This document shows positions 17,069 to 58,582 of a stretch of DNA of 64,000 nucleotides, one piece after another. The stretch is from positions 1,184,001-1,248,000 of the forward strand of contig CAVOFT010000001.1 in NCBI GenBank assembly GCA_963695095.1, in the 5' to 3' direction. Within the stretch, counting starts at the first letter, position 1; each line of letters starts with the position of its first letter. Below the pieces are notes generated by a model. It was not told the origin of the DNA, did no database searches, and saw only the letters and a list, made by a program, of their open reading frames with translations. The translations under genes were made by a program, and so were the position numbers. This DNA is from an uncultured bacterium (GTDB lineage Bacteria; Krumholzibacteriota; Krumholzibacteriia; JACNKJ01).

Positions 17069-18404
17069 TCAGCGCTCGCGCTTGGGCGGGATGGGGACGA
17101 GAGGCTGGGGGCCGCGCCCCGGCAGGGGCAGCCCGGCCCGCCGCCAGCCGGGCACGCCCTCCTGGTAGATCAGTGTGCGCAGCCAGCCCAGCCGAGCGGC
17201 CTTCGTGGCCGCGATGCGGCTGCGCACGCAATCGGCCCCGTAGCAGTAGAAGGCCAAGGAGTCGCGGGCGGGCGCCGTTCCCGGCCAATGCGCGGCGATG
17301 AGCGCGCTGAGCGAGTCGTCGACCACTTGCGCGGGCAGGGCGATGGCCCCGGGCAGATGCTCGCGCGTGAAGTCGCGGTGGCCGCGCAGGTCGAAGAGGG
17401 GCAGCCGCGGGCGGCGCCGATCGGCGAGTTCGGGATTGCCGTCGGCGAGCAGGGCGCGCATCGCCTCCGTGTCGAGGATGCGCGTCGTGGGTAGCGTCCA
17501 GTCTGCCTGCCAGGCCGCCCAGCCGCCGAGCTGCACGGCGGCCTTCACGCCGATCATCCGCAGCAGCAGATAGCCCAGGCCCGGCGCCGGGTCGGTGGCA
17601 TCCGCCCCGCAGAGCACGAAGGTGGCCTCCAGGTCCACGGTGTCCCGCTTGCGGGGGCCGAAGCTCGCCGAGGGCCTCGCGGGCGGCCTTTGGCTCCGGC
17701 CAGCCGTCGTTGGCGCCGAGCAGGGCGGGCAGGTCGATGGCCAGGGCATGGGGGATGTGCCCCGCGGGCCCGGCCCAGGCGGCTTCGCCGCGCAGGTCGA
17801 GGATCTCGCAGGTCCGGGTCTCGCCCATGCGGGCCAGGATCCAGGCCGCGTCGACGGCGAGCGCGGCGTCCGGTGTGGGGCCGGCGACCGCGGTCGCCCC
17901 CGCCGCCGGCTCGCGGCTCAACTCGCCCCCCTCGCGCAGCCAGGCCTCGATGCCGCCCGCGAGCACCCGCGGCATTCGGCAGCCCGCCCACTCCAGGGCC
18001 CAGAAGGCACGGCCGAGGGCCGGCAGGCCGAGGCCGTCCGTGTAGAGGAGCAGAGGGGTCTCGCTGTCGATGCCCTGCGCGCCTAGCCAGGCGGCGAGGG
18101 AGCCGGCCTCACCTGCGGCGAGCGCGGTGGCCAGCGGCAGCTCCAGGTCGAAGGGGCGCGCGGCTGGGAGATGGCCTCGCGCGAAGGCCTCGGCGGGGCG
18201 CAGGTCGAGCGCGAGCGGGCGCTTCCGCTCGGGCGTCCTCGCCAACTCGCGGGGGCCGATCAGGATCTCCGGGTAGACGGGCTCGCGCGGCGGGGTGCGA
18301 CCCAGCCAGGGGAAGGGGTCGCGCGGGGCCTTGGTGTCGGCCCCGGTGGGGCCGCTCAAGGCGAGCCCGGCGAGGGCCAGGGCGAGGAGGGCGAGCTGGC
18401 GCAT
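17069..18404 (-). CDS. Exported three-domain rhodanese/sulfurtransferase; one frameshift near 17665
   Basis: Signal peptide; DLRPAEAFARGHLPAA, RVLAGGIEAW, LDLRG...GHIPHA; after the frame change FGPRKRDTVDLEATFVL...LGGWAAW, FDLRGHRDFTREHLPGA, FYCYGADCVRS, YQEGVPGW. Confidence 0.8.
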
Positions 18405-18545: not shown

Positions 18546-20201
18546 ATGAAGGGCTTACGCTTTGCCCTCGCCGCGGCGCTGGCGGGTCTGCCCGCCCTGA
18601 GCGGAGCGGCGCCCGAGCTCGAGTGGGCCGCGACCCACGACGGCGGCGGCCTCTACGTGGACGAGGCCCGCCTTGCCCTCACGGACCCCGCGGGCAACCT
18701 GGTGCTGGCCGGCACCAGCCACGACGGCGTGGACGGCCTGGACCTGCTGGCCATGAAGCTGGCCAAGGACACGGGCGCCGTGCTCTGGGAGCGCCGCCAG
18801 CCCTCCTTCGACACCAACGACATGGCCGTGAGCGCGCTGAGCTGGGACGGGCTCGGCGACCTGCTCCTCGTCGGCTATGTCGTCGGCTGCGTGGGTTGAG
18901 GCCACGGCGACGACATCGTCGTCCTGAAGCTGGACGGCGAGACCGGAGAGGTTCTCTGGTTACAGCACTACGCTCCCGCAGGTGATCAGCACGAAACGGC
19001 CTACGCCGTGGCCGCGGCGCCGAACGGCGATGCCTTTGTCGTGGGGCGCGCCTACACGGCCGGCCGCATGGACGACGTCATCGCCCTGCGCCTGGCTGCC
19101 GCCGACGGCCACATCCTCTGGCTGAACCGCCTCGACGGCGGCAATGCCCGCAATGACCGCGGCTACGCCTGCGTGGCGGACGCCGCCGGTGACCTCGTCA
19201 TCACCGGCATCGCGGTGAACCCGGACGAATCGGCGGACTTCCTCACCCTCAAGCTGGCCGGCGAGGACGGCCAGCTGCACTGGACGCGGCGCGAGCCCGG
19301 CGCCGTCAACAACGAGACGCCGTCGGGCTGGCTGGGCCTGGCTGCGGAGGGCGGCGACGTCTTCATGGCCAACAAGACCTGGCAGACGGGCTACTCCTTC
19401 GACGCCGTGCTCGCGCGCTACGCGGGCGCTGACGGCGCCGTGCTCTGGAGCCGGCAATACGACAACGCCGGCGCGGCGGACGACCCGCGGCAGATGATCG
19501 TCGACGGCGCGGGCTGGCCCGTGGTGGCCGGCGTCTCGGCGGGCAACATGATGACGATGCGCGTGGACCCGACCAGCGGCGATCCCCTCTGGACCCGCTT
19601 CAAGGACGGGCCCATGGGCTGGTACGACCTCGCCAACTGCCTGGGCCTGGGCCCCGAGGGGCTGATCCTCGCCGCCGGCTTCATGGACGGCGGTGCGTCC
19701 ACCTGGGACGCGGCCGTGGTTGCCTACGCACCCGATACGGGCGATGAGGCCTGGACACTGGTCTGGGACGGCGCGGACAGCCTCACCGACGAGCTGCGCG
19801 CGCTCGCGCTCGCGCCCACGGGCGAGCTCTATGCCGTGGGCTACAGCTACGCGACCTCGACGGACATGGACATGCTCGCCCTGCAGTATCGCTTCGCGCC
19901 GACGGCGGTGGACTCGCCCTGGCAGCCGGCCGCGCTCGAGGCGCGCGCCTGGCCCAATCCCTTCCGCGAATCCGTGCAGCTTCGCCTCGCCCTGCCCGCC
20001 GCGGGCAGCTATCGCGCGGAGATCTTCGATGCGCAGGGCCGCCGCGTGCGGAGCCTCGACGGCGAGGCCGCGTCCGGCGAACTGAGCCTGCTGTGGGACG
20101 GCCGGGACGCGGAGGGGCGCGCGGCTCCGGCCGGTCTCTACTTCGTGCGCATCACGAGCGGCGGCGGCGAGTGGCGGGGGCGGCTGCTGCGCCTGCGCTA
20201 G
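18546..20201 (+). CDS. Secreted 8-blade beta-propeller (SBBP/PQQ-like repeats) with FlgD-Ig tail; in-frame TGA at 18897-18899 in a CxxU motif; candidate selenoprotein (551 aa)
   Basis: AAGGA RBS; signal peptide; ...LLLVGYVVGCVG*GHGDDIVVLKLDGETGEVLWLQHY... continues in frame into ORF 19008-20201; blade repeats G..D....(K/R)L...G..LW; PNPFR...AGLYFVRI tail. Confidence 0.8.
18897..18940 (+). promoter_or_regulatory. Candidate bacterial SECIS element
   Basis: UGA + 16 nt, then stem TCGTCGTCC(18916-18924), loop TGAAGCT, GGACGGCGA(18932-18940); loop 25 nt from the UGA with G at loop position 2. Confidence 0.55.
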
Positions 20202-20264: not shown

Positions 20265-20356
20265 GTAGCGTGCGGCAGGAAGTGCGAGCGATCGGCAGCG
20301 GGTGTATACTCCCAAGCGTCGGGCAAGGGTGCTGCCGATGAGGGGAGGTCCTGGTG

Positions 20357-21949
20357 ATGGGCAAACGCTGCTTCGCAGCTGGGATAGTGCTTGCGATGCT
20401 GCCAAGCGGCTTTGCGAGCGGGGCAGAGGCCGCTCAGCTCCACGTCCCGCTCGAGTACCCCACGATCCAGGCAGCGGTCGATGCAGCGGCGCCGGGGGAC
20501 AGCGTCATGGTCTCACCTGGAATCTATGCCGCTCCGCCAGATTCAACACGGATCCTCCGGTGCATCGGAAAGGCCATTTACGTCATCGGCACGGCCGGTA
20601 GCGATTCCACCATCCTGTACGGGGCTGGCGGGGGAGGCCTATCCCTCATCGATGTGCCTCCTCCCGGGTTGAGCCTTCAGGGACTGACCATTGAAGAGTG
20701 CGCTGGTGGGATCTACTGCAGCGGCAGCGACCTCCTATGTTCGGAGATCCAGTGGCGCGGGAACTGCAGCGACCTTTACGCTGGCGGGCTGACGCTGATC
20801 AACTCCGTGGCTCGCATCACCGGTTCGGGTTTCGCAGACAACCGCAGCGGCTGGGATACCATTAGCGGTGGGTTTGGTGGAGCCCTCTATCTCTGGGGGG
20901 AGTCCTCCGCCTATCTCTCCGAGGTGGAGTTTTTGCGAAACGAGGCAAGCTTTGGAGGCGGTGCAATCGCCATGCTCCACGCGGATTCGCTCACCCTCGA
21001 TCGCGTGAGTTTCGAAGACAACAGCGGGCACTCCGGCGGCGCGCTGTACGTGGAAGCCAGCTCTGCCGAGGATTCGTCCAGTGTTCGGATACAGGAGTCG
21101 GTCTTCCATAGCAATTCGGCGGTGGGGGACGGCGGTGCAATCCGAGCTGCTGGCGGCCGACTGGAGCTTGAGGCTGTGGTCATCAGCGGAAACGAAGCGG
21201 GCCAGTATGGGGGCGGTATCGATTGCTCGCGGACTGCGTTGAGAATCGCCAGCTGCACGATCGCGCGCAACCAATCCACAGTGGGCGGCGCGGCCATTCA
21301 CGTCGACGACGGCGGCGAAGCGGGGAGCGTGAGCTTGGAGGTCTGCATCGTCGCCCTGAACACGGGCTCAAGCAGCCTCGAGTGGGCCGGCGACGGGGCA
21401 GCGCCCGTGCTCGCGTGCTGCGATGTCTTTGCCACGAACGGCGACCACTTCGGCGGCGCTTGGCCGGATGTCATCGGCCAGGACGGCAACTTCTCGGCGT
21501 ATCCCTACTTCTGCGGTACAGGGCCCTACGATGAGCAGAGCGGAGCGGACTTCAGCTACGAGCTTCAGACGAACTCGCCCTGCCTGCCGGGAGGCAATCC
21601 CTGCGGCATCTTGGTCGGTGCTTTCGGCGAGGGTTGTATCGCCAGCGTCGCAGGGGATTCGGATAGCGCCGACTGGCAGCCCGCCCGCGCGCTTCCGAAT
21701 CCCTTCGTGGAGACCACGCGGATTCGCGGCGCACTGCCGGGAGCGGGACCTGCGATGCTGTGCATCTACGACATCAGGGGGCGCAAGCTGCGCGAGCTGA
21801 AAGCTCTCGCGGGCGCCAACGAGTCCGCTGTCGAGTTTGCCTGGGACGGCCGCGACGGCGAGGGCCGACCCGCGCCGTGTGGCGTGTACCTGTACCGGAT
21901 TGAACGGGAAGGCCGGCGGCTCTCGGGGCGAGTCACCAGGCTGCGCTAA
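20357..21949 (+). CDS. Secreted right-handed beta-helix protein (Pmp-like GGA[I/L]/FxxN repeats) with FlgD-Ig tail
   Basis: VPLEYPTIQAAVDAA, repeated FxxN...GGA(I/L), YELQTNSPCLPG, PNPFV...GVYLYRI; GGAGG RBS. Confidence 0.85.
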   Translation: MGKRCFAAGIVLAMLPSGFASGAEAAQLHVPLEYPTIQAAVDAAAPGDSVMVSPGIYAAPPDSTRILRCIGKAIYVIGTAGSDSTILYGAGGGGLSLIDVPPPGLSLQGLTIEECAGGIYCSGSDLLCSEIQWRGNCSDLYAGGLTLINSVARITGSGFADNRSGWDTISGGFGGALYLWGESSAYLSEVEFLRNEASFGGGAIAMLHADSLTLDRVSFEDNSGHSGGALYVEASSAEDSSSVRIQESVFHSNSAVGDGGAIRAAGGRLELEAVVISGNEAGQYGGGIDCSRTALRIASCTIARNQSTVGGAAIHVDDGGEAGSVSLEVCIVALNTGSSSLEWAGDGAAPVLACCDVFATNGDHFGGAWPDVIGQDGNFSAYPYFCGTGPYDEQSGADFSYELQTNSPCLPGGNPCGILVGAFGEGCIASVAGDSDSADWQPARALPNPFVETTRIRGALPGAGPAMLCIYDIRGRKLRELKALAGANESAVEFAWDGRDGEGRPAPCGVYLYRIEREGRRLSGRVTRLR

Positions 21950-53787: not shown

Positions 53788-56187
53788 ATGGCCGAGGCAC
53801 GCGATCCAGCTTCCCCCGCCGGCGGCGCTGGCCGCGCGCGCCTGCGCCTGGACTTCCGCGGGCGCGTGCAGGGCGTGGGCTTTCGGCCCTGGATCTATCG
53901 CCTGGCCACGGAGGAGGGCCTGGCCGGCCACGTGGGCAACGACCTGCGCGGCGCCTTCGTCGAAGTCGAGGGCGCCCCGGTGGCCATCGCCCGCTTTCTT
54001 GCGCGCGTCGAAACCGAAGCGCCGGCCCTGGTGGCCATCGTCGCGCGCGAGGAGCAGGCGCTCGCGCCCCTCGGCGAGCGCGAGTTCCGCATCCTCTCGA
54101 GCCGCAGCGGCGGCGAGCAGCGCGCGGAGATCGCGCCCGATGCCGCCACCTGCCCCGACTGCCTGCGCGAACTCTTCGATCCCGCGGATCGCCGCTACCG
54201 CTACCCCTTCATCAACTGCACGAACTGCGGGCCGCGCTACTCGATCGTGAAGTCCCTGCCCTACGACCGGCCGCGCACCACGATGGCCGCCTTCACGATG
54301 TGCCCGCGCTGCCAGGCCGAGTACGATGACCCCGCCGACCGCCGCTTCCACGCCCAGCCCAACGCCTGCGGCGACTGTGGCCCGCGCGTGGAACTCACCG
54401 ACGCCGTGGGCCGCGCGCGCGCGGGCGAGCCCATCGCCGAGAGCGTCCGCCGCCTCCTGGCCGGCGAAATCCTCGCCATCAAGGGGCTCGGCGGCTTTCA
54501 CCTCGCCTGTCGCGCGGATCGCGAAGATGTGGTCGCCCGCCTGCGCGCGCGCAAGGGCCGCGAGGCCAAGCCCCTCGCGCTCATGGTGGCCGAGCTGGCT
54601 GCTGCCCACGCGCTGGTGCAGCTCGACCCGCCCAGCGAGGCCCTGCTCGCGAGCGTCGCGCGGCCCATCGTGCTGGCGCCCGCGCATGCGGGCATCCCGA
54701 TCGCGCCCGCCGTGGCGCCCGGCAGCCACACGCTGGGCATCATGCTGCCCTACACGCCCCTGCACCACCTGCTCTTCGCCACGGCCGCCGCGGGCGAGCA
54801 GCTCGGCCCCCTGGTCATGACCTCGGGCAACCCCAGCGCGGAGCCCCTCTGCGCGGACAACGCCGAAGCCCTCGCGCGGCTCGGCTCCATCGCCGACGCC
54901 TTCCTCCTCCACGATCGCGACATCGAGCGCCGCGTGGACGACTCGGTGGCCCTCGCCCTGCGCCTTGCCGCCCCCGGGGGCGAGGCCGCGCGCACCCTGC
55001 CGCTGCGCCGCGCGCGCGGCTTCGCGCCGGCGCCGATCATCCTGAGCGAGGCGGTCGCCACGACGGTCCTCGCCCTCGGCGGCGAGCTGAAGAGCACCGT
55101 CTGCTATCTCGCCGGCGATCAGGCTCTGCTCAGCGAGCACCTGGGCGACCTGGACAACCCGGCCGCCTACCGCGCCTTCCTCGGCACCATCGAGCGCCTG
55201 GGCGAACTGGTGGGCGTGGAGCCCGCGCTCATCGCCTGCGACCTGCACCCCGACTACGCCGCCAGCCGCCACGCGCGCGGCCTCTCCCTGCCGCGCGTCG
55301 AGGTGCAGCACCACCACGCGCACATCGTCAGCTGCATGGCCGACAACGGCCTGCCGCTGGACGCCGAGGTGCTGGGCCTGGCCTGCGACGGCACGGGCTA
55401 CGGAGACGACGGCAGCATCTGGGGCTGCGAGCTGCTGCAGTGCAGCGCAGCGCGCTACGCGCGCCTGGGGTCCCTGCGCCCCTTCGTGCTGCTGGGCGGC
55501 GACGCCGCGGCCCGCGAGACCTGGCGGCCCGCGGCGGGCCTGCTCGCCGAGACCTACGGGCCCGACTGGCCCGCGGCCGCACCTGGCGCCGCGGCGCGCA
55601 TCCGGCCCGAGGCGCTGGCGCTCGCCCGCCGCTTCCTGGCCGCGCCCGCGCCGCCCGGACCGCGCACGAGCAGCCTGGGTCGGCTCTTCGACGCCGTGGC
55701 CTTCCTGCTTGGCCTCTGCGACTACAACCAGGCCGAGGCCCAGGCGGCGATGGCCCTGGAGGCGGCCGCTGCCCGCCACGGCGCCGCCGCGCCGCTGCCC
55801 TTGCCGGTGATCCCCGAGGGCGGCCTGCTGCTGCTCGACCCGCGGCCGCTCATCGCGGCCCTCGTGGGGGGCCGGGACGCCGGCCGCCCGGCGGGCGAAC
55901 TCGCCGCCGCTTTCCACGCCGGGCTGGCCCAGGGCCTGGCGGCCCTCGCGGCCGCTGCTGCCGCCCAGGGAGCGCCTCGCCGCCTGCTGCTCTCCGGGGG
56001 CTGCTTCGCCAATCGCATTCTCACGGAAGGGCTTGCGGGCCTGTTGCAGGATCATGACCTTGATGTCAGTATTCACCAGCGCGTGCCCACCGGCGACGGG
56101 GGCCTGGCCCTGGGCCAGGCCCTCATCGCCGCCGCGCAGGCCGAACGCGGCCAGCTGCCTCCCACCGGCGCGCACAGCGAGGAGTGA
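53788..56187 (+). CDS. hypF: Hydrogenase maturation carbamoyltransferase HypF
   Basis: GRVQGVGFRP, CPDC...CTNCGPR, CPRC...RRFHAQPNAC, HHHAH, DGTGYG, GDGGLALGQ. Confidence 0.96.
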   Translation: MAEARDPASPAGGAGRARLRLDFRGRVQGVGFRPWIYRLATEEGLAGHVGNDLRGAFVEVEGAPVAIARFLARVETEAPALVAIVAREEQALAPLGEREFRILSSRSGGEQRAEIAPDAATCPDCLRELFDPADRRYRYPFINCTNCGPRYSIVKSLPYDRPRTTMAAFTMCPRCQAEYDDPADRRFHAQPNACGDCGPRVELTDAVGRARAGEPIAESVRRLLAGEILAIKGLGGFHLACRADREDVVARLRARKGREAKPLALMVAELAAAHALVQLDPPSEALLASVARPIVLAPAHAGIPIAPAVAPGSHTLGIMLPYTPLHHLLFATAAAGEQLGPLVMTSGNPSAEPLCADNAEALARLGSIADAFLLHDRDIERRVDDSVALALRLAAPGGEAARTLPLRRARGFAPAPIILSEAVATTVLALGGELKSTVCYLAGDQALLSEHLGDLDNPAAYRAFLGTIERLGELVGVEPALIACDLHPDYAASRHARGLSLPRVEVQHHHAHIVSCMADNGLPLDAEVLGLACDGTGYGDDGSIWGCELLQCSAARYARLGSLRPFVLLGGDAAARETWRPAAGLLAETYGPDWPAAAPGAAARIRPEALALARRFLAAPAPPGPRTSSLGRLFDAVAFLLGLCDYNQAEAQAAMALEAAAARHGAAAPLPLPVIPEGGLLLLDPRPLIAALVGGRDAGRPAGELAAAFHAGLAQGLAALAAAAAAQGAPRRLLLSGGCFANRILTEGLAGLLQDHDLDVSIHQRVPTGDGGLALGQALIAAAQAERGQLPPTGAHSEE

Positions 56188-57564: not shown

Positions 57565-58582
57565 ATGCGCGAGTCCGAACAGATCCTGATGGCCCACGGC
57601 GGCGGCGGCGAGTTGACGCAGCGCCTCGTCGCCGAGCACATCCTGCCGCGCCTGGGCAACCCCCTGCTGGCGCCGCTGGCCGACGGCGCCCTGCTCGCGC
57701 CCGTGGCCGGCAGGCTCTGCCTGACGACGGACTCCTTCGTCGTGCAGCCGCTCGAATTCCCGGGCGGCGACATCGGCCGGCTCGCCGTCTGCGGCACCGT
57801 CAACGACCTGGCGATGATGGGCGCGCGACCGCTGGCCCTCAGCCTCGGCCTCATTCTCGAGGAGGGGCTCGCCCTGGCCACCCTCGACCGCGTGCTGGAC
57901 TCCATCGCCGTCGCGGCGGCCGCGGCCGGCGTGCCCGTGGCGACGGGCGACACCAAGGTCATCGAGCGGCGGGGCGCGGGCGGGCTGCTCATCAATACCA
58001 CCGGCCTCGGCGAGCTGCGCGCCGGCGCCCTGCTCGGCGCCGAGCGCGTGGAGGCGGGCGACTTGCTGCTCGTCAGCGGCGGCATCGCCGAGCACGGCCT
58101 GGCCGTGCTCTCCATGCGCCAGCACCTGGAGTTCGCCACCGATCTCGTCAGCGACGTCGCCGCGCTGGACACGCTGGCCGCCGCTCTCATCGCGGCCTGC
58201 GGCGAGGCGCTCAAGTTCATGCGGGATCCGACGCGCGGCGGCCTGGCGGGCCTGGTCTGCGACCTCGCAGCGGCGGCGGGGCTCGGCGTGGAAGTGGACG
58301 AGGCGGCGGTGCCGATCCTGCCGGCCGCCCTGGCCACGGCGGAGTTGCTGGGGCTCGATCCCCTGGGCATCGCCAACGAAGGCAAGCTGGTGGCCGTGGT
58401 GGCCGCCGGCGGCGGCGCCGCGCGCCCTCGCCGCGCTGCGCGCGCACCCGCTGGGCGCGCGCGCAGCGCTCGTCGGCCGCTGCCTGCGCGCCGCGCCGCC
58501 CCTGGCGGAGCTGATCACGCGGGGCGGTGGCCGCCGGCTCATCGCCCGGCCCTACGGCGAAGATCTGCCGCGCATCTGCTGA
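57565..58582 (+). CDS. hypE: Hydrogenase maturation protein HypE; one frameshift near 58405-58420
   Basis: AHGGGG, TTDSFVV, GTVNDL, GDTKV, RDPTRGG, ANEGKL; shifted frame gives ALAALRAHPLG...GEDLPRIC*. Confidence 0.92.

Follow-up and report, generated by a model that had tools for sequence, protein, structure and literature searches.

Does a TGA codon that interrupts a long reading frame in an uncultured member of the Krumholzibacteriota end one gene, or does it encode selenocysteine (Sec) in the middle of a larger one? The codon lies in a stretch of 64,000 nucleotides (nt) from contig CAVOFT010000001.1 of the GenBank assembly GCA_963695095.1 (positions 1,184,001 to 1,248,000), referred to below as the window; coordinates are those of the window unless a contig is named. 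Translation of positions 18546 to 20201 of the forward strand yields a single frame of 551 codons followed by TAG, and its sole internal stop is the TGA at 18897 to 18899 (codon 118), in the context GCVG-U-GHGDD. Under translation table 11, the region falls into two open reading frames (ORFs), the first of which ends at position 18899, while the second begins at a GTG codon at 19008. An initial annotation, made from the DNA letters, had described one frame broken only by this TGA, which the translation bears out, and had interpreted it as the gene for a new secreted selenoprotein. The sequence evidence presented here indicates that the gene very probably encodes a genuine selenoprotein with Sec at UGA-118, and we consider it highly probable that it does so and that the protein follows the type IX secretion system (T9SS) route.

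Conservation of the in-frame UGA and the decoding machinery

The read-through protein was searched for in 40 relatives and in the window's own genome. This search yielded 16 full-length genes in 15 genomes, with 37 to 100% identity, each of which has exactly one in-frame TGA. In all 16 orthologues, at 35 to 81% identity, the TGA falls in the same alignment column, is surrounded by conserved protein sequence on either side, and belongs to a set of invariant positions that comprises G114, C115, U118, G121, D122, and D123. The spacing between Cys and Sec is 2 residues in most genes and 3 residues in some of them (GCGTGU and GCGGTU). Two distant paralogues (32% and 28% identity) contain neither the TGA nor the Cys and show a 5-residue gap exactly at the Sec loop.

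The gene is found in 68 of the 208 genomes of the phylum and in two of its nine families, namely, in 10 of 11 genomes of family f1 and in 57 of 91 genomes of family f2. Among the 70 rows of this phylum-wide search, 69 have one TGA, and the lone exception is the paralogue with 32% identity. Records of metagenome-assembled genomes (MAGs), found by scanning 185,579 species-representative genomes, contain 31 loci with 32 genes, all of which have the TGA and share the motif G-C-x(2,3)-U-[G/D/S]-[H/Q/S/E]-G-D-[D/E]. The titles of these records refer to Candidatus Eisenbacteria/Eiseniibacteriota, Krumholzibacteriia, Latescibacterota, Gemmatimonadetes, and “Fibrobacteraceae.” Four weak loci (L084 to L087; partial matches, 25 to 35%) fell below the score filter and are excluded from the count of 32 genes. 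Finally, a single metagenome scan relied on a DNA pattern in which the Sec codon may be TGA, TGC, or TGT, with the family context defined by the following peptide, G[HQ]GDD[VIL]..K. The scan produced 75 loci, and 74 matches were re-found: within the family context, the codon is TGA in 41 of 41 cases and TGY in none, and the remaining matches (29 with TGY and 4 with TGA) have unrelated flanks.

Thus, the conserved TGA that was anticipated in homologues has been seen in 16/16, 32/32, 69/69, and 41/41 genes of the respective sets, and none of them has a varied sense codon in this column. Since the column is kept in every orthologue examined, chance can be excluded as the source of the TGA. The initial annotation had also expected to see homologues with Cys in place of the Sec (CxxC); this expectation failed, as none were found in the genomes, metagenomes, or database proteins searched. 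Contigs from four metagenome runs cover positions 18884 to 18960, and the TGA is bridged by three longer ones; these contigs are not used as evidence on the codon. No RNA run is listed among the sequencing runs that match the gene (shares of sampled words, ≤0.07).

The genome (3.64 Mb in 2 contigs) carries all four genes, selA, selB, selC, and selD, that a selenoprotein at this locus led us to expect. The scores of selA (430 bits), selB (337 bits), and selD (342 bits) are all above the curated cutoffs, and the tRNA-Sec, with a TCA anticodon, scores 71.9 bits against a cutoff of 47. The selA gene is found in all 41 genomes of the class. The selD gene of this genome (contig 1, positions 69142 to 70107, reverse strand) has an in-frame TGA and is itself a selenoprotein gene. 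Reassignment of TGA is excluded because this codon serves as the genuine stop in 8 of the 16 orthologues.

The downstream RNA element and the encoded protein

The fold of the RNA segment from 18890 to 18975 has a z-score of −2.5 relative to shuffled sequences and includes two hairpins, referred to here as H1 and H2, the second of which is located directly behind the first and has a 9-bp stem and a GGU loop. H1 corresponds to the hairpin 17 nt past the UGA that had been proposed as the recoding signal. Its presence holds up, with a 9-bp stem and a UGAAGCU loop in the minimum-free-energy fold, and so does its conservation through compensatory changes. However, neither of the first two loop positions is a G in 14 of 38 genes, and the signal consists of two hairpins, the more conserved of which, H2, had been overlooked.

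The segment that runs from the UGA through H2 is free of indels in all 38 distinct genes. In H1, 89.5% of the alignment cells pair and three pairs change on both sides; for example, at columns 34 and 54, G-C is replaced by A-U in nine genes, where a Val-to-Ile substitution is matched by a synonymous Gly change. The 6-bp core of H1 is intact in 36 of 36 distinct metagenome sequences, and its loop, made of Leu-Lys codons, is variable. In H2, 99.7% of the cells pair, the stem reads GACCGGRGA/UCUCUGGUY, and all 38 genes have a GGU loop; in the 36 distinct metagenome sequences, its five central nucleotides always begin with A-G-[G/U]. For H1 and H2 combined, the paired share is 94.9%, versus 34 to 56% when the 3′ partners are slid, and there are 16 compensatory cells; the observed values were reached by none of 500 shuffles. 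Divergent metagenome members of the family (with the peptides SGQLVW, TGELLW, and TGEDLW at this site) keep both hairpins in the same place via compensatory changes, e.g., from G-C to C-G. Synonymous variation, defined as the share of gene pairs with the same amino acid at a codon that use different codons for it, is 0.43 gene-wide and ∼0.31 over H1 and reaches the gene minimum of 0.13 to 0.16 at codons 131 to 142, which lie over H2. An Rfam scan of positions 18800 to 19050 (E value of ≤10) returned only chance-level matches, the best of them being mir-598 (17.6 bits versus a cutoff of 69).

One relative encodes tandem copies of the propeller gene (L033/L052/L080; G037:C8:45332-48673). Both copies contain the TGA and both hairpins, and in the second copy, the pair that closes the H2 loop is changed from A-U to C-G. 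In another locus (L025; G008:C3), a run of N is located upstream of the orthologue, in a different frame and outside the region compared.

The AlphaFold model of the protein, built on the 16-sequence alignment, has a mean predicted local distance difference test (pLDDT) score of 84.8 and a predicted template modeling (pTM) score of 0.81. It contains 32 strands in eight four-stranded blades, with the N-terminal strand, residues 24 to 31, closing blade 8. The stretch after the TGA had been said to complete blade 2, and it does so both in sequence, as DIVVLKLDGETGEVLW repeats the strand-turn-strand motif, and in the model, where it provides strands 123 to 130 and 136 to 142 of that blade. The Sec loop consists of 10 residues between strands 105 to 112 and 123 to 130 and is the longest of its kind in the propeller, in agreement with the earlier remark that it exceeds the neighboring ones; in the other seven blades, this loop has 2 to 7 residues. 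The repeat motif, D-x-x-T-G-x-x-x-W, is presumably the “tryptophan-docking” pattern of the propellers of the pyrroloquinoline quinone (PQQ) type, which would place the Sec between strands B and C of blade 2. By what we take to be the usual propeller topology, the loop would then belong to the “top” face, which is made up of the B-C and D-A loops, and Cys115 and Sec118 may be close to each other there. The model is an all-beta propeller with the motif in a blade loop and shows no thioredoxin-like fold around it. Foldseek searches retrieved only generic propellers, such as CylK (E value of 7.6e-16; template modeling [TM] score of 0.51), BamB, and tetrathionate hydrolase, and in a sequence profile search of the PDB, the propeller matched quinohemoprotein alcohol dehydrogenase only weakly (E value of 1e-4). 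PF13360 was not among the Pfam matches of the read-through protein at an E value of ≤1 and appears only in the precomputed annotations of truncated homologues.

The predicted signal peptide was read from the sequence: all 16 aligned orthologues have a hydrophobic N terminus that ends in an A-x-A-like site. In the model, the N terminus forms a helix (residues 2 to 13) with low pLDDT. At the other end of the protein, residues 469 to 542 match the NCBIfam model TIGR04183 (29 bits versus a cutoff of 23). Among the Pfam families, FlgD_ig is found above its cutoff (E value of 5.6e-11) and Por_Secre_tail below it (19.6 versus 27), and for the tail, the PDB profile search retrieved the immunoglobulin (Ig)-like domains of FlgD and the C-terminal domain of PorU. 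The genome encodes PorU (438 bits versus a cutoff of 420) and SprA (532 versus 200), and there is a PorV-like gene beside porU with a score of 112 bits, below the cutoff of 250. Sequences that match the C-terminal sorting tail of the protein occur at 149 or more places in the genome (3.6 Mb), which suggests a very large T9SS-dependent secretome.

In the mechanism that we propose, SelB with Sec-tRNA(Sec) would decode UGA-118 as selenocysteine, and H2, whose AGGUU loop is of the same type as the GGUC and GGA loops of the other candidate selenoprotein genes of the genome, would be the SelB-binding hairpin. H1 would serve as a folded spacer that brings H2 near the ribosome despite the distance of 50 nt in sequence. 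The predicted signal peptide would export the protein, the C-terminal sorting domain would take it across the outer membrane via the type IX system, and the eight-bladed propeller would act outside the cytoplasm. Cys115 and Sec118, in the glycine-rich loop G-C-x-G-U-G, which is the longest of the loops from strand B to strand C, could then form a selenenylsulfide/selenol-thiol pair that acts on an extracellular substrate. A flexible redox pair of this kind is our preferred reading of the Sec loop, if only a tentative one.

Arguments against the assignment and alternative readings

A number of observations weigh against this interpretation. The presence of selenium in the protein is deduced from sequence comparisons. 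According to the deep-Sep paper, almost all selenoproteins have Cys homologues. The Cys-coded form of this family is absent from the scan of species-representative genomes, from the 208 genomes of the phylum, from the TGY-accepting metagenome scan, and from 177 database proteins; the profile search of the representative library, which covered the best 150 of 448,777 proteins (E value of ≤0.001, propeller superfamily), is not exhaustive for Cys forms. With no Cys homologue, the classical argument from Sec/Cys pairs is lost, which is unusual for a selenoprotein. The RNA element also deviates from the consensus of the bacterial Sec insertion sequence (SECIS), which calls for a loop of 3 to 9 nt that begins 16 to 37 nt from the UGA and has a G in its first two positions, usually followed by G or U (PMC13188914). 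H1 has the right spacing (25 nt), but the G is present in only 24 of 38 genes, whereas H2 has the consensus loop, yet this loop begins 50 nt past the UGA. In selD, whose hairpin has a 6-bp stem and a GGA loop, and in three other candidate genes of the genome, GGUC or GGA loops begin 17 nt past the UGA, so that the element is atypical for its own genome. As for the protein, the Sec loop is modelled with moderate confidence (pLDDT of 68 for the block of residues 111 to 120), and the second residue after the Sec varies (H, Q, S, or E), which excludes a fixed catalytic His. Lastly, no conserved neighbor suggests a redox partner: clustering of the ORFs that flank the gene in the window and in 31 loci showed no ORF, apart from the two pieces of the gene itself, that more than 6 loci share.

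The deviations of the RNA element could mean that the roles of the hairpins are the reverse of those proposed above, with H1 being the functional SECIS and H2 being kept for some other reason, e.g., because it causes pausing, binds another factor, or contains a Shine-Dalgarno-like GGAGAGG tract. Such an arrangement, which we regard as unlikely but still a serious contender, would account for the position of the H1 loop within the 16- to 37-nt range and for the true compensatory changes in its stem (G-C to A-U at columns 34 and 54 in nine genes), and it would avoid an H2 spacing that the model does not cover and that greatly exceeds the 17 nt of the other candidates. However, it would leave the SECIS with a loop that is made of variable Leu-Lys codons and lacks the expected G in 14 genes. 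In addition, the strongest synonymous constraint is on H2 rather than H1, and the A-G-[G/U] sequence of H2, seen in 36 of 36 cases, fits both the loop rule of the consensus and the GGUC and GGA loops found elsewhere in the genome. The candidate SelB-binding hairpin remains H2.

A second alternative accepts the selenoprotein and concerns only its chemistry. Instead of catalyzing a redox reaction, the Cys115/Sec118 loop might, at the cell surface, bind a soft metal or metalloid (e.g., Hg, Cu, Cd, or As) or species of sulfur or selenium. There are precedents for this, as CxxU, UxxU, and UxxC motifs occur in predicted metal-handling selenoproteins, namely, a mercuric transport protein, a metal-binding protein, and a cation ATPase (PMC13188914). 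The loop is glycine-rich and flexible (pLDDT of 68) and has an acidic G-D-D sequence next to it, and a redox enzyme at an extracellular site would probably lack an evident reductant for its recycling. A secreted multirhodanese protein is encoded divergently upstream in the closest relatives, which would agree with binding of metals or chalcogens, but only 4 of 45 loci, those of close relatives, retain this gene, and we do not use it as a functional argument for that reason. With a C-to-U spacing of either 2 or 3 residues and with the flanking H swapped for Q, S, or E, the motif is looser than a defined metal site, and no metal resistance or transport gene is conserved nearby in the window and the 31 loci. 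Binding of a metal or chalcogen appears rather improbable, although it is the main alternative to the selenenylsulfide/selenol-thiol pair, which is retained as the preferred reading of the loop.

Much less credible is read-through without selenium, in which the UGA of an ordinary propeller would be read as Trp, Cys, Gly, or Arg by a near-cognate tRNA or through local recoding. It would agree with the indirect nature of the evidence for selenium and with a recoding element that is atypical for a SECIS. However, sense codons would then be expected in the column, and none are seen among more than 100 genes; the invariant Cys in C-x(2,3)-U provides the classical context of a selenoprotein (PMC13188914); the Sec machinery is encoded in the genome, and selA in every genome of the class; and the H2 loop obeys the SECIS loop rule. 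As a real stop, with two genes (for a 117-residue secreted peptide and a downstream protein) or a pseudogene, the TGA would be in line with the gene callers of all public sources, which end the gene there, and with the table 11 ORF from the GTG at 19008, but we consider this hardly tenable, as the break would cut through blade 2 of an uninterrupted propeller, every orthologue continues in the same frame past the TGA, the segment from there to the end of H2 is free of indels in 38 genes, the downstream pieces start variably and without a signal peptide yet carry a T9SS domain that should need prior export, and one TGA in one column of a pseudogene would not persist at 33 to 81% identity.

Known systems, coordinates, and genomic surroundings

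In public databases, the family is present only in the form of pieces of 346 to 431 residues that begin after the TGA and either carry the name “T9SS type A sorting domain-containing protein” or are called hypothetical. Truncated entries had been predicted by the initial annotation, and their starts are scattered over internal positions; the downstream half has neither a conserved start nor a signal peptide of its own. The family had also not been recognized among the described selenoproteins, and this assessment stands: there is no matching selenoprotein model in NCBIfam release 20 and no propeller or T9SS cargo entry among the 119 prokaryotic selenoprotein families and subfamilies tabulated in 2026 (PMC13188914). 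Propellers, T9SS, PQQ, and FlgD are mentioned neither in that paper nor in the main texts of deep-Sep and BSepDB. Judging by titles or abstracts, the literature found contains no bacterial propeller selenoprotein and no link between selenocysteine and type IX secretion. The word “selenoprotein” is absent from the examined part of the matching literature on Krumholzibacteriota, Eisenbacteria, and Latescibacterota. The family is missing from the catalogues examined and is unusual in being a propeller with predicted T9SS export, in having no Cys-form relatives, and in its two-hairpin recoding element outside the consensus.

Among the known systems, the CxxU/UxxC redox selenoproteins, such as SelW-like, AhpD-like, GrdA, and thioredoxin-like proteins (PMC13188914), resemble this family in having the Sec 2 to 3 residues from a conserved Cys, a genome with selA, selB, selC, and selD, and a hairpin element directly downstream within the coding region. 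In contrast to them, the protein described here is a propeller, not a thioredoxin-like or AhpD fold, is predicted to be exported with a T9SS domain, has no Cys forms found so far, and combines CxxU with CxxxU spacing. Predicted selenoproteins of the envelope or cell surface resemble it in their location, and their receptor has a CxxU motif. However, they are membrane beta-barrels, and Cys homologues of the receptor are reported in Table 3 of deep-Sep, whereas the propeller would be soluble and T9SS-delivered, with no Cys form found.

The RNA element can be compared to the SECIS of the Escherichia coli fdhF type and the bSECISearch model (PMC13188914), with which it shares a stem-loop past the UGA inside the ORF, an H2 loop with G followed by G or U, and the presence of SelB. 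It differs from them in having two adjacent hairpins with fixed spacing, in the position of the G[G/U] loop 50 nt past the UGA instead of the 16 to 37 nt of the model, and in the lack of the G, in 14 of 38 genes, from the hairpin that is at the canonical distance.

The PQQ-like/BamB-like propellers (PF13360; BamB, quinohemoprotein alcohol dehydrogenase, tetrathionate hydrolase, and CylK) have the same fold and the same repeat, which consists of a strand, a D-x-x-T-G turn, and a W strand; the Foldseek E values are 1e-9 to 1e-15, but the TM scores are only 0.4 to 0.5. None of these examples is titled a selenoprotein in its entry, and the Sec loop insertion is absent even from the closest TGA-less paralogues. 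Mammalian thioredoxin reductase, a cytosolic flavoenzyme, has a C-terminal Gly-Cys-Sec-Gly arm in which Cys and Sec are adjacent. This glycine-flanked Cys/Sec pair on a flexible segment offers a model for the proposed selenenylsulfide shuttle, although the propeller has 2 to 3 intervening residues, an internal loop instead of a C-terminal arm, an export route, and no flavin domain.

Two filters underlie the discovery of bacterial selenoproteins: the existence of a homologue with Cys and a hairpin in keeping with the SECIS consensus. The present family does not clearly pass either of them even though more than 100 genes share its UGA, which reveals a blind spot of the search pipelines and of genome annotation. 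It places selenium chemistry in a beta-propeller with predicted type IX export, and it is encoded by uncultured bacteria, the records of which bear labels such as Eisenbacteria and Krumholzibacteriia. The fixed two-hairpin element represents a natural experiment on how far from the UGA the SECIS loop can lie. It is possible, although somewhat doubtful, that these proteins form a class of obligate-Sec extracellular T9SS propellers, in which the Sec is never replaced by Cys in any known member, with a bipartite SECIS, of a kind not described before, in which a conserved spacer hairpin brings the SelB-binding hairpin, 50 nt past the UGA, into range. If so, such a SECIS would widen the known rules of bacterial Sec insertion, and searches based on homology to Cys proteins and on the consensus SECIS would be systematically overlooking entire selenoprotein families.

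The coordinates of the gene and its parts are listed in Table 1.

Table 1. Predicted features of the propeller selenoprotein gene in the window
Feature	Position	Strand	Basis
Complete putative selenoprotein gene, one UGA read through	18546..20201	+	Single frame; orthologues colinear across residues 1 to 551
Predicted N-terminal signal peptide, approximately residues 1 to 22, MKGLRFALAAALAGLPALSGAA	18546..18611	+	Read from sequence
Eight-bladed beta-propeller, residues 24 to 449, 32 strands	18615..19892	+	AlphaFold model, Foldseek
Invariant Cys115 codon TGC, partner of the Sec in C-x(2,3)-U	18888..18890	+	16/16 aligned orthologues; 32/32 MAG-record genes
UGA codon 118, proposed selenocysteine	18897..18899	+	Column conservation; Sec machinery in the genome
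Hairpin H1, 8-bp stem, 7-nt loop beginning 25 nt past the UGA	18917..18939	+	Fold, pairing, compensatory changes
Hairpin H2, 9-bp stem, GGU loop beginning 50 nt past the UGA, candidate SelB-binding hairpin	18941..18961	+	Pairing, minimum of synonymous variation
T9SS type A sorting/FlgD-Ig-like domain, residues 469 to 551	19950..20198	+	TIGR04183, Pfam FlgD_ig, PDB profile search

The genes that flank the propeller gene encode secreted M1 and M14 peptidases with the same tail, the divergent multirhodanese protein, and a beta-helix protein that also has the tail; a minority of loci again have the M14 peptidase close by. The multirhodanese gene (17069 to 18404, reverse strand) is split over two frames, with the N-terminal part running from 18404 down and the C-terminal part from 17917 to 17072. 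In the three closest relatives, both parts share one frame; here, the split represents a frameshift, an assembly error, or a pseudogene. The downstream gene (20354 to 21949, forward strand) encodes a right-handed beta-helix/PMP-repeat protein with the same sorting tail, and its third-position GC content is 0.76, versus ∼0.9 in its neighbors.

A crude filter of the genome by third-position GC content and in-frame TGA listed 60 candidates, most of which are neighboring genes that share a frame. Since neither the propeller gene nor selD was among them, the list is not a census. Candidate selenoprotein genes on contig 1 are located at positions 2731343 (reverse strand, FVUPTE), 1064804 (forward, GGUAC), 2963424 (forward, GUPAC), 1611446 (reverse, WUGSC), and 2603228 (reverse, GGUC). 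In the FVUPTE, GGUAC, and GUPAC candidates, hairpin loops of the GGUC or GGA type begin 17 nt past the UGA. All three are presumably known motifs, with FVUPTE marking a peroxiredoxin-like protein.

Elsewhere in the window, a gene that starts with MCLAVPGKI at about position 56185 (1240185 of contig 1) begins right after the in-frame TGA stop of the preceding gene; its product resembles HypC. Positions 57748 to 58344 (1241748 to 1242344 of contig 1) give a weak match to the selD family (33.9 bits), which probably comes from a protein of the AIR-synthase type such as HypE. The HypC-like gene and the nearby selD-family match suggest a cluster for hydrogenase maturation.

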